A program made the position numbers and the translations under genes. The notes beneath the pieces were generated by a model. It searched no databases and had not been told where the DNA came from. It worked only from the letters and a program-made list of their open reading frames with translations. A stretch of DNA of 64,000 nt from Candidatus Bathyarchaeota archaeon (GTDB lineage: Archaea > Thermoproteota > CALKCG01 > B24 > DRYS01). The DNA is taken from NCBI GenBank assembly GCA_018396535.1, contig JAGTQC010000002.1, forward strand, positions 32,001-96,000, read 5' to 3'. Positions 16,380 to 29,097 of this stretch are shown here, in pieces (the stretch's first letter is position 1; every line of letters starts with the position of its first letter).

Positions 16380-16856
16380 ATGTCTAGAGGCGTCTACACA
16401 CTTATTCTAGCATTATACTCAGGGAAATCTATAAGAGTAGGCAGACTCGGAGTACTAACCTTCGATAAAGGCTTCTACGCTTACACTGGATCCGCTATGG
16501 GTAAAGGAGGATCCAGCTTAGAAAATAGGATTGCTAGATATCTACGTAGAAGTATAGATAAACCATTCTGGCATATAGATTACCTCCTAATGGAGGCTGA
16601 ATCGGAGGCTGTAATCTACGCTGTATGCGAGCAGAGCTTCGAGCATAGGATAGCATCAGAGTTATCTAGAAGAGTAAAACCGATCGACGATTTCGGTTCA
16701 TCAGATTGTAGATATGAGTGTAGAGCTCACCTACACTATCTAGGTTTAGATATATCCCATGCTATGAATACGGTATTATCCATTTATACAAGCTTAAACC
16801 TAGAACCCAGGGTGATATACCCTAACAGAGATATTTTTAAACAGAGGGAGTTATAG
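16380..16856 (+). CDS. GIY-YIG (Uri/DUF123) nuclease family protein
   Basis: GVYTL, YAYTGSA, WHIDYL, FGSSDCxxxCxAHL. Confidence 0.85.
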   Translation: MSRGVYTLILALYSGKSIRVGRLGVLTFDKGFYAYTGSAMGKGGSSLENRIARYLRRSIDKPFWHIDYLLMEAESEAVIYAVCEQSFEHRIASELSRRVKPIDDFGSSDCRYECRAHLHYLGLDISHAMNTVLSIYTSLNLEPRVIYPNRDIFKQREL

Positions 16857-16881
16857 TATAGCAGTAGTGGAGGGATAGGCT

Positions 16882-17309
16882 ATGAGTAGACCTTCAGATA
16901 TAGGTTCGATTAAACCAGGTATGTATGTAGTTATAGATGGGGAGCCATGCAGAGTTTTATCTGTAGATAAATCTAAACCCGGAAAAGCCTAGTAGGTGCT
17001 CGAAGCCTCTAGGCTCCGAAACATGGAAGCGCGAAAGCAAGGATAGTAGGCATAGGATTATTCGATAATGTTAAGAGATCTATAGTAGCACCAGTAGATG
17101 CAACTATCGATATACCTATAGTAGATAAGAGAGTTGGGCAGGTAATATCGATCATGGGGGATAGTGTTCAACTCATGGATTCAGAAACATACGAAACATT
17201 CGAATTGAATATACCAGAAGACCTTGAAGGAAGAGATAGATTAGCTCCAGGAGTAGAAGTCGAGTATTGGAGGATTATGGGCAGAAATAAGCTCGTGAGA
17301 GTTAAGTAA
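16882..17309 (+). CDS. eif5a: translation factor aIF-5A, two exons (16882-16985 + 17021-17309), 130 aa after splicing
   Basis: exon 1 [34 protein letters not shown]; exon 2 [15 protein letters not shown]...[13 protein letters not shown]...VEYWRIMG; removing 35 nt restores SKPGKHGSAK. Confidence 0.93.
16986..17020 (+). other. putative bulge-helix-bulge intron in aIF-5A mRNA (35 nt)
   Basis: CGGA/TCCG 4-bp helix, two AAA bulges, GCCTAG/CTAGGC 6-bp intron stem; carries in-frame TAG TAG and shifts frame. Confidence 0.85.
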
Positions 17310-17354: not shown

Positions 17355-17429
17355 GGGCCGGTAGCTCAGCCTGGTCAGAGCGTCCGGCTGATAACCGGAA
17401 GGTCGAGAGTTCGAATCTCTCCCGGCCCA
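17355..17429 (+). tRNA. tRNA-Ile(GAT), no intron, CCA not encoded
   Basis: GGGCCGG/CCGGCCC acceptor stem, TCCGG CT GAT AA CCGGA, GTTCGAATC. Confidence 0.96.
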
Positions 17430-17704
17430 CTCTACCATACTTTTTCCCCGGATACTACCATTGCAATATCATATATTCTTCGAAGCAAGACTTTAACAAC
17501 CTTGTAAATGTATTCATAACCTTTCACATAAAAGTAATTCAACTGGATAGCTAGGATAGTATCGATAATCCCTAAACCTAGGTATCTATAGGAGATTCGA
17601 GATCTCATCGATGACGAAATTTATAGTTGAAGCGGGTAGAAAGAATCTGATGAATAATTTTTAGATCAATAGATTTTTACCACACACTATACTTAACTAA
17701 TGTT

Positions 17705-29022: not shown

Positions 29023-29097
29023 GCGGCCGTGGTCTAGGCTGGTTAGGATGGGGGCCCTCCAAGCCTCCGGTCGCGGGTTCAAATCCCGCCGGCCGCA
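29023..29097 (+). tRNA. tRNA-Gly(TCC) with C at position 33
   Basis: GCGGCCG/CGGCCGC acceptor stem, GGGGC CC TCC AA GCCTC, GTTCAAATC. Confidence 0.9.

Follow-up and report, generated by a model that had tools for sequence, protein, structure and literature searches.

A predicted BHB intron in the hypusine-lysine codon of an archaeal aIF5A gene

The aIF5A gene of a hot-spring archaeon is interrupted, within the codon of its hypusine lysine, by 35 nt that are almost certainly a BHB intron of the pre-mRNA removed by an (alpha-beta)2 EndA and RtcB (probability about 0.9). The gene lies in a 64,000-nt stretch of DNA (the window; positions given below are window positions unless a contig is named) from a metagenome-assembled draft of 1.41 Mb in 14 contigs, which is 93% complete.

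The interrupted gene and its predicted fold

The initial annotation had described an intact aIF5A broken at KPG-K-HG by 35 nt, and all of its coordinates and motifs were found in the sequence. The gene starts with ATG at 16882, ends with the TAA stop at 17307-17309, and is made up of the following parts:

16882-16985, plus strand: exon 1, 34 codons and the AA of the hypusine-lysine codon (translation, NF003076, Pfam PF21485)
16986-17020, plus strand: predicted BHB intron, 35 nt, with an orthologous site in the two other species of the genus (G001, G002) and in a metagenome contig (L040)
17021-17309, plus strand: exon 2, the third base of the lysine codon, 95 codons and TAA (NF003076, TIGR00037, Pfam PF01287)

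Exon 1 is read as AAA CCC GGA AAA GCC TAG TAG, and the unspliced RNA stops, as had been claimed, at the TAG TAG inside the intron (16990-16995), giving an ORF of 36 aa (16882-16992). The exon-2 frame, which runs from 17022 to the TAA, has a UAG inside the intron at 17010-17012. Removal of the 35 nt gives GGA AA/A CAT GGA (a slash within a codon or peptide marks a junction), and the predicted spliced junction is CCCGGAAAACAUGGA. Translation of the joined exons confirmed that taking out 16986-17020 yields GKHG and a protein of 130 aa, in which KPG-K-HG is restored as part of KSKPGKHGSAK. We scored the two exons against profiles separately rather than as a joined sequence. Exon 1 matched positions 5-35 of NCBIfam NF003076 (IF-5A, equivalog) and exon 2 matched positions 37-128 (133.6 bits), so that exactly one residue, the hypusine lysine, lies between the two matches; exon 2 also scored above the cut-off of TIGR00037. 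This was the single aIF5A locus (n=1) of the host, and a search for a second intact copy found none in the 1.41-Mb, 93% complete genome.

Inspection by eye only placed a Shine-Dalgarno-like GGAGGG motif at 16869-16874 and TTTTTAAA at 16834-16841, both upstream of the gene. A tRNA-Ile(GAU) gene lies on the same strand at 17355-17430, 45 nt past the aIF5A stop, and a tRNA-Gly(UCC) gene lies at 29023-29097.

The proposed BHB geometry, with CGGA facing TCCG, AAA bulges and GCCTAG facing CTAGGC, is present in the sequence and was the minimum-free-energy fold in RNAfold at 37, 60 and 75 C. Its elements are:

16980-16983, plus strand: 5' strand CGGA of the central helix H, in exon 1, paired with 17015-17018 in every fold and invariant in the four sequences compared below
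16984-16986, plus strand: bulge 1, AAA, with a predicted cut after 16985 from the BHB rule
16987-16997, plus strand: 5' arm of the inner helix h', GCCUAG, a bulged U and AGGU, in which three pairs covary among the four sequences
16998-17004, plus strand: 7-nt loop of the inner hairpin, GCUCGAA (folds)
17005-17014, plus strand: 3' arm of the inner helix h', GCCU and CUAGGC (folds, alignment)
17015-17018, plus strand: 3' strand UCCG of the central helix (H'), in the intron (RNAfold, alignment)
17019-17021, plus strand: bulge 2, AAA, with a predicted cut after 17020 and no helix directly beyond (relaxed HBh')

Six base pairs form between GCCTAG (16987-16992) and CTAGGC (17009-17014), and AGGU/GCCU adds 4 bp past the bulged U. 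In the BHB of pre-tRNA, exon bases 32-35 pair with the intron. The aIF5A structure shows the 4-bp central helix and two 3-nt bulges on opposite strands that characterize a BHB, as well as its polarity, with both bulges 3' of their own helix strand. The strict hBHBh' form was not found, as C16979 faces C17022 and no helix starts right after bulge 2. The motif is of the HBh' form, confirming the earlier view of a relaxed motif without a direct exon-side helix.

We estimated the chance expectation with 2,000,000 shuffles of the 35-nt insert, in which the splice sites were held fixed where the protein demands it. A 4-bp central helix together with an inner helix of at least 4 bp arose in 401 of these shuffles, and the observed quality of structure was matched in 1. 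A loose BHB motif had 42,577 hits in the host genome; the significance therefore comes from the exact placement of the motif and not from the motif itself. No Rfam family matched the 35-nt insert. A mobile element as the origin of the intron was rejected, there being no second copy of the intron in the host genome.

Conservation and recurrence of introns in the hypusine codon

An insert is present at the identical position of aIF5A in both other species of the genus, G001 (CAZBGY01; 35 nt) and G002 (JANXEK01; 36 nt), which NCBI labels Candidatus Bathyarchaeia/Bathyarchaeota MAGs. Two JGI metagenome contigs from other samples also carry the insert, L040 being a further variant. Since our metagenome scan found the intron in 2 of the 80 closest loci, the covariation set is small, and covariation support is drawn from four distinct sequences, namely those of the host (G000), G001, G002 and L040.

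Among these four sequences the spliced coding sequence had a dN/dS of 0.06-0.07 in both exons, at a dS of 0.2-1.1, and both exons were intact. In the inner helix, three pairs had changed on both sides (C-G/U-A, U-A/A-U and A-U/G-C), and 95.8% of the alignment cells were paired, versus 26-47% when the partners were slid by 1-3 columns. Both the intron in the aIF5A loci of relatives and the compensatory stem changes, which the initial annotation had named as a check, were therefore observed in G001, G002 and L040. The central helix is invariant among the four sequences and fixed by the Pro-Gly codons, and is therefore uninformative for covariation. Of the 35 intron positions, 8 are changed between the host and G001, for which dS is 0.83; the aIF5A intron evolves more slowly than silent sites. 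A further region of low variation was found on the exon side:

16966-16986, plus strand: codons 29-35 (D K S K P G K), the longest run in the gene without synonymous change, ending at the junction

Over the whole gene, 58 of the 104 degenerate codons (56%) varied in the four sequences, and none of the seven among codons 29-35 did. This suggests that the exon side of the motif may be constrained at the RNA level.

An outer helix of CCAUG (16945-16949) with CAUGG (17022-17026) had also been put forward as a possible pairing. Here the evidence was divided, with one compensatory change in G001 in its favor and one mismatch in L040 against it. RNAalifold, applied to 16930-17110, produced a different, interrupted long helix that pairs about 16930-16964 of exon 1 with about 17039-17069 of exon 2 and would hold the exons around the BHB; we rejected it, as it showed no double-sided covariation and several broken cells.

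The relatives also bear on the position of the cuts. Both bulges of the host are AAA, hence its cut position is indistinguishable from sequence. The second bulge of G001 is AGA, where AAA (Lys) would result from cutting behind base 2 or 3 and AGA (Arg) from cutting behind base 1, which excludes cutting after the first bulge base. The canonical BHB cut falls after bulge base 2 (Marck and Grosjean 2003; Xue et al. 2006). This base-2 rule reproduces the published cbf5 boundary in the host genome, and in aIF5A it would place the cuts at 16985/16986 and 17020/17021.

Our collection holds 16 species of the GTDB class and order of the host. The aIF5A intron occurs in families f1 (3/3) and f4 (2/2), the latter represented by the hot-spring MAGs JZ-2_201705_bins_236 and QZM_A2_bin_28 (G005 and G008). 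The f4 (genus g4) intron is 30 nt long, with a sequence of its own, and shares the phase (AA/G). Its proposed structure has a weaker central helix, with three G-C pairs and an A.G, and at 60-75 C a different fold has the minimum free energy. This intron is identical in the two species, and their exons differ at 26 of 408 bases. KPGKHG is uninterrupted in the seven genomes of family f3 and in the two of genus g5 of family f2, and the aIF5A gene was not found in two incomplete genomes of the class. A tree of RtcB grouped f4 with f2 and left f1, (f2, f4) and f3 as a three-way split; on this tree the aIF5A intron must have been gained or lost at least twice. After a 5-nt gap the g1 and g4 introns share about 60% identity, a good part of which the splice-site ends impose. 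Given the class-wide set of core-gene introns with losses described below, an intron that was ancestral in the class and lost in f3 and g5 is as plausible as two gains.

Beyond the class, we searched 400 sampled genomes of the phylum by pattern and obtained two further true hits, against about 30 background matches. The complete 1,577,284-bp, Nitrosocaldus-like genome G351 has a 32-nt intron with a perfect BHB (CUGG/CCAG) and an 8-bp inner helix, which splits the hypusine-lysine codon one base earlier, as A/AG. A 22-nt intron related to it, also splitting A/AG, is present in a Nitrosomirales MAG (L191). In G106, of family f17, a 19-nt intron interrupts the same codon as AA/A (L241; contig C14, 36112-36157, minus strand), with a helix H of GGGU/GCCU that includes two G.U pairs and a 4-bp stem, GCGC/GCGC. 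At least four intron sequence families thus occupy the hypusine-lysine codon of aIF5A.

Other interrupted genes and the splicing machinery

The aIF5A gene is one of at least five genes with a BHB interruption in the host genome. The remaining predicted introns, by contig of that genome, are:

Contig C1, 62867-62900: cbf5, 34 nt, helix H CCCU/GGGG, bulges AGA and AUA, 10-bp inner helix
Contig C9, about 125171, minus strand: aEF-2, 32 nt, UCCG/CGGA, bulges AAA and AGA, 8-bp stem
Contig C12, about 5737, minus strand: aIF5B, 24 nt in frame, GGGA/UCCU, bulges UGA and AAA, contains TAA
Contig C8, about 172248, minus strand: SAM synthetase, 35 nt, GAGG/CCUC, 12-bp stem

Cutting after bulge base 2 restores all four of these genes, in which no matching codon pairs are present at the junctions. 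In cbf5 this cut restores GTLD/PAVTG and divides the catalytic Asp codon (GTL-D-PAVTG) after its first letter, the position published for the cbf5 intron (PMC2738675). The published distribution of that intron covers Desulfurococcales and Sulfolobales only (PMC2738675); we found cbf5 split at one profile position in 16/16 genomes of the class. The aEF-2 profile match lacks positions 1-20, with the intron lying just before the G1 motif, and removal gives QIR/NIGIIAHVDHGKT; the match begins at position 19-21 in all class members. For aIF5B, removal gives ...REAGG/MTQHIGA. The SAM synthetase match lacks positions 1-23, and removal of its intron gives ER/KGLGHPD. This interruption is found in f1, f2 and f3 and is absent in f4 (G005, G008), and in three f3 genomes the insert leaves the reading frame unshifted and contains a stop.

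The aIF5A and cbf5 introns of the host start and end alike (A-G-Y-CUAG ... CUAG-R-C-U) and are one compensatory pair apart. This likeness is missing in the aIF5A of the sister species and may be due to chance (about 0.5%, a post-hoc estimate).

A genome scan for H(4)-B(3)-h' returned 144-1,399 candidates that 'restore' an ORF, mainly gene-boundary noise, and recovered cbf5, aEF-2 and MAT; without homology such a scan is unusable as an intron census. Taken with the distribution of the individual genes, the aIF5A intron is one of a set of core-gene BHB introns in the class, with lineage-specific losses.

The host encodes two EndA paralogues, alpha and beta. The alpha paralogue (187 aa; C2:6210-6770) has its best match in EndA alpha of Aeropyrum pernix (3P1Z_B, E 7e-48). 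It has retained the catalytic region, YRxGPGxDHAPY...RK, as well as the Crenarchaea-specific loop, in which K41/R43 align with APE K44/R46. It is this loop, with its lysine, that allows non-canonical and relaxed motifs to be cut (PMC3241643). The beta paralogue (189 aa; C1:182214-182780) lacks the His and resembles structural beta subunits. The initial annotation had deduced from the relaxed motif that a broad-specificity endonuclease is implied, and the EndA pair with the loop Lys and Arg kept fits this prediction; cleavage of the relaxed aIF5A motif would rest on this assumed broad specificity of the host EndA. RtcB (484 aa, 596 bits; C7:165608-167059) and deoxyhypusine synthase (PF01916, 320 bits; C1:110757-111608) are also encoded.

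Two further observations concern this machinery and its tRNA substrates. The RtcB genes of G007, G010 and G011 (f3) and of G021 and G024 (L219-L228) lie in open frames of about 970-1000 aa, with the RtcB match interrupted near residue 100, the pattern that an intein would give; host RtcB is without one. ARAGORN called 36 tRNA genes in the host genome, five of them with introns, and its doubtful calls include a tRNA-Val with an 844-nt 'intron' (C3:7175-8109) and a 'tRNA-SeC'.

We propose that the aIF5A pre-mRNA would fold by pairing CGGA of exon 1 with UCCG near the 3' end of the insert, with a 3-nt AAA bulge after each strand and an interrupted 10-bp hairpin closing the intron side. The two-subunit (alpha-beta)2 EndA would then cut behind the second base of both bulges, and RtcB would ligate the exons and probably circularise the 35-nt intron. 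The joined mRNA, reading GGA AAA CAU GGA, would be translated into the normal 130-aa aIF5A, and deoxyhypusine synthase would be able to modify the restored lysine. From unspliced RNA only the 36-aa peptide would be expected. Cleavage and ligation of the aIF5A RNA, as well as the cut sites, are predicted here from sequence.

Alternative explanations and relation to known systems

We weighed this splicing model against other ways of reading the locus. Programmed translational bypassing, with take-off at AAA 16984-16986, landing at AAA 17019-17021 and resumption at CAU, has in its favor that the take-off and landing codons are both present in the host and in G002, and that in these two genomes a stop codon and a stable hairpin directly follow a codon repeated across a short gap, as in T4 gene 60. 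However, the matching codons are not conserved, as the landing position is AGA in G001, with no AAA or AAG nearby, and the introns of G351 and of the Nitrosomirales MAG (L191), which split A/AG, have no in-frame matching Gly/Lys landing codon. The exact BHB geometry with its covariation also speaks against bypassing, as does the finding that the identical geometry restores four other host genes where such codon pairs are absent. We regard it as a remote prospect for the host gene, and gene-60-type bypassing is excluded as a general explanation. Frameshifting was rejected, being blocked by the UAG in the exon-2 frame, as was in-frame read-through of the 36-nt (G002) and 30-nt (g4) versions, which would meet stops and place 10-12 residues into the hypusine loop. 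The formally broken ORF could instead mark a decaying or insertion-inactivated pseudogene, with aIF5A function lost or supplied elsewhere, and a genome that is 93% complete leaves room for a second copy. Against this, no second aIF5A was found in the host genome, deoxyhypusine synthase is retained, and aIF5A is near-universal, as 386 of the 400 genomes sampled from the phylum gave a match. The interruption is also precisely kept in at least five species of two families and in other lineages. The dN/dS of 0.06-0.07 across two intact exons, at a dS of up to 1.1, excludes a pseudogene, and we attach hardly any probability to it. Still less is attached to an assembly or sequencing artefact, in which the 35 nt would be missing from the DNA of the organism. 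The source is indeed a metagenome-assembled draft in 14 contigs, but orthologous inserts in G001, G002 and the two JGI contigs carry substitutions that preserve pairing, and an insert seen in at least four independent assemblies excludes such an error.

A real intron that is removed conditionally is a different matter, as it would make the interruption a switch tying aIF5A output to EndA/RtcB activity or to temperature. Unspliced RNA would yield no aIF5A, and the intron sits in the codon of an indispensable residue, where introns recur across several lineages. IRE1/RtcB splicing controls HAC1/XBP1 mRNA in eukaryotes and may serve as a precedent. However, aIF5A is normally an abundant housekeeping factor, and introns lie in conserved motifs of four other host genes and in cbf5 in 16/16 class genomes. 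These introns in other conserved motifs point to a general survival pattern of such introns rather than to a dedicated switch, which we consider highly unlikely. The initial annotation had speculated on a regulatory link between EndA/RtcB splicing and tRNA maturation, a suggestion that is pure inference. A regulatory role specific to hypusine is weakened because four other host genes have BHB introns in conserved motifs. This argues that the hypusine-codon position may reflect a general tendency of BHB introns toward invariant motifs, for which selection, insertion bias and detection bias are candidate causes.

The splicing model is closest to the cbf5 intron, and the aIF5A intron is an addition to the kind that cbf5 defines. 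Both introns are short, protein-free and within a coding sequence; removal is needed for a functional protein, and the BHB is often relaxed. Both have hosts with hetero-oligomeric EndA and show patchy gain and loss among relatives, and both split the codon of a decisive residue, which is the catalytic Asp in Cbf5 and the hypusine Lys in aIF5A. Unlike cbf5, which is split after codon base 1, aIF5A is split after base 2. The host class is labelled Bathyarchaeia in NCBI records, unlike the Sulfolobales and Desulfurococcales of cbf5. Splicing of cbf5 has been demonstrated experimentally, whereas we infer that of aIF5A from the DNA. The cbf5 pre-mRNA intron was reportedly described by Watanabe in 2002 and by Yoshinari in 2006.

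The aIF5A introns resemble archaeal tRNA and rRNA BHB introns in their 4-bp helix, two 3-nt bulges and predicted cuts after the second bulge base. Their lengths of 19-35 nt and the intron-side hairpin are within the range of tRNA introns, and the host encodes EndA and RtcB. Unlike tRNA introns, the substrate would be an mRNA without a tRNA body, the exon-side helix is missing beside bulge 2, and the sequence of one central-helix strand is dictated by the Pro-Gly codons. With HAC1/XBP1, aIF5A would share a protein endonuclease and an RtcB-type ligase acting on a short mRNA intron, with the active protein depending on its removal. However, aIF5A has a BHB and not twin stem-loops, the endonuclease is different, and HAC1/XBP1 is a proven stress switch, whereas regulation of aIF5A is hypothetical. 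T4 gene 60, as set out above, lacks both the BHB with covariation and the variation in matching codons (G001, G351, L191) seen here.

The initial annotation was not aware of a description of an aIF5A intron. Our literature searches agree with this within the searchable literature, a scope that leaves out most subscription journals, where we found no published aIF5A intron. According to Yokobori 2009 (PMC2738675), cbf5 is the only archaeal gene with confirmed pre-mRNA splicing, and the EndA reviews of 2019 and 2025 limit their pre-mRNA citations to the cbf5 work.

For more than 20 years cbf5 has stood alone as the archaeal protein gene with demonstrated pre-mRNA splicing. The aIF5A intron would add a second gene, one that is universally conserved and essential, and it lies in the codon of the residue that is later made hypusine. 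It would also mean that automated gene calling wrongly records core genes of these lineages as absent or fragmentary, and that the tRNA-splicing enzymes of some archaea may have a sizeable mRNA clientele. A broader idea, which we think unlikely and advance tentatively, is that introns were recruited to or kept in indispensable codons of core translation genes (the aIF5A hypusine Lys, the Cbf5 catalytic Asp and the G-motifs of aEF-2 and aIF5B) as a splicing-dependent control layer coupled to EndA/RtcB. If this were true, the control layer would be a counterpart in this archaeal class of HAC1/XBP1 splicing. The recurrence of introns unrelated in sequence in one codon offers a system for studying how protein-spliced introns originate, move and are lost, a question with relevance to the early evolution of introns in the archaeal-eukaryotic lineage.
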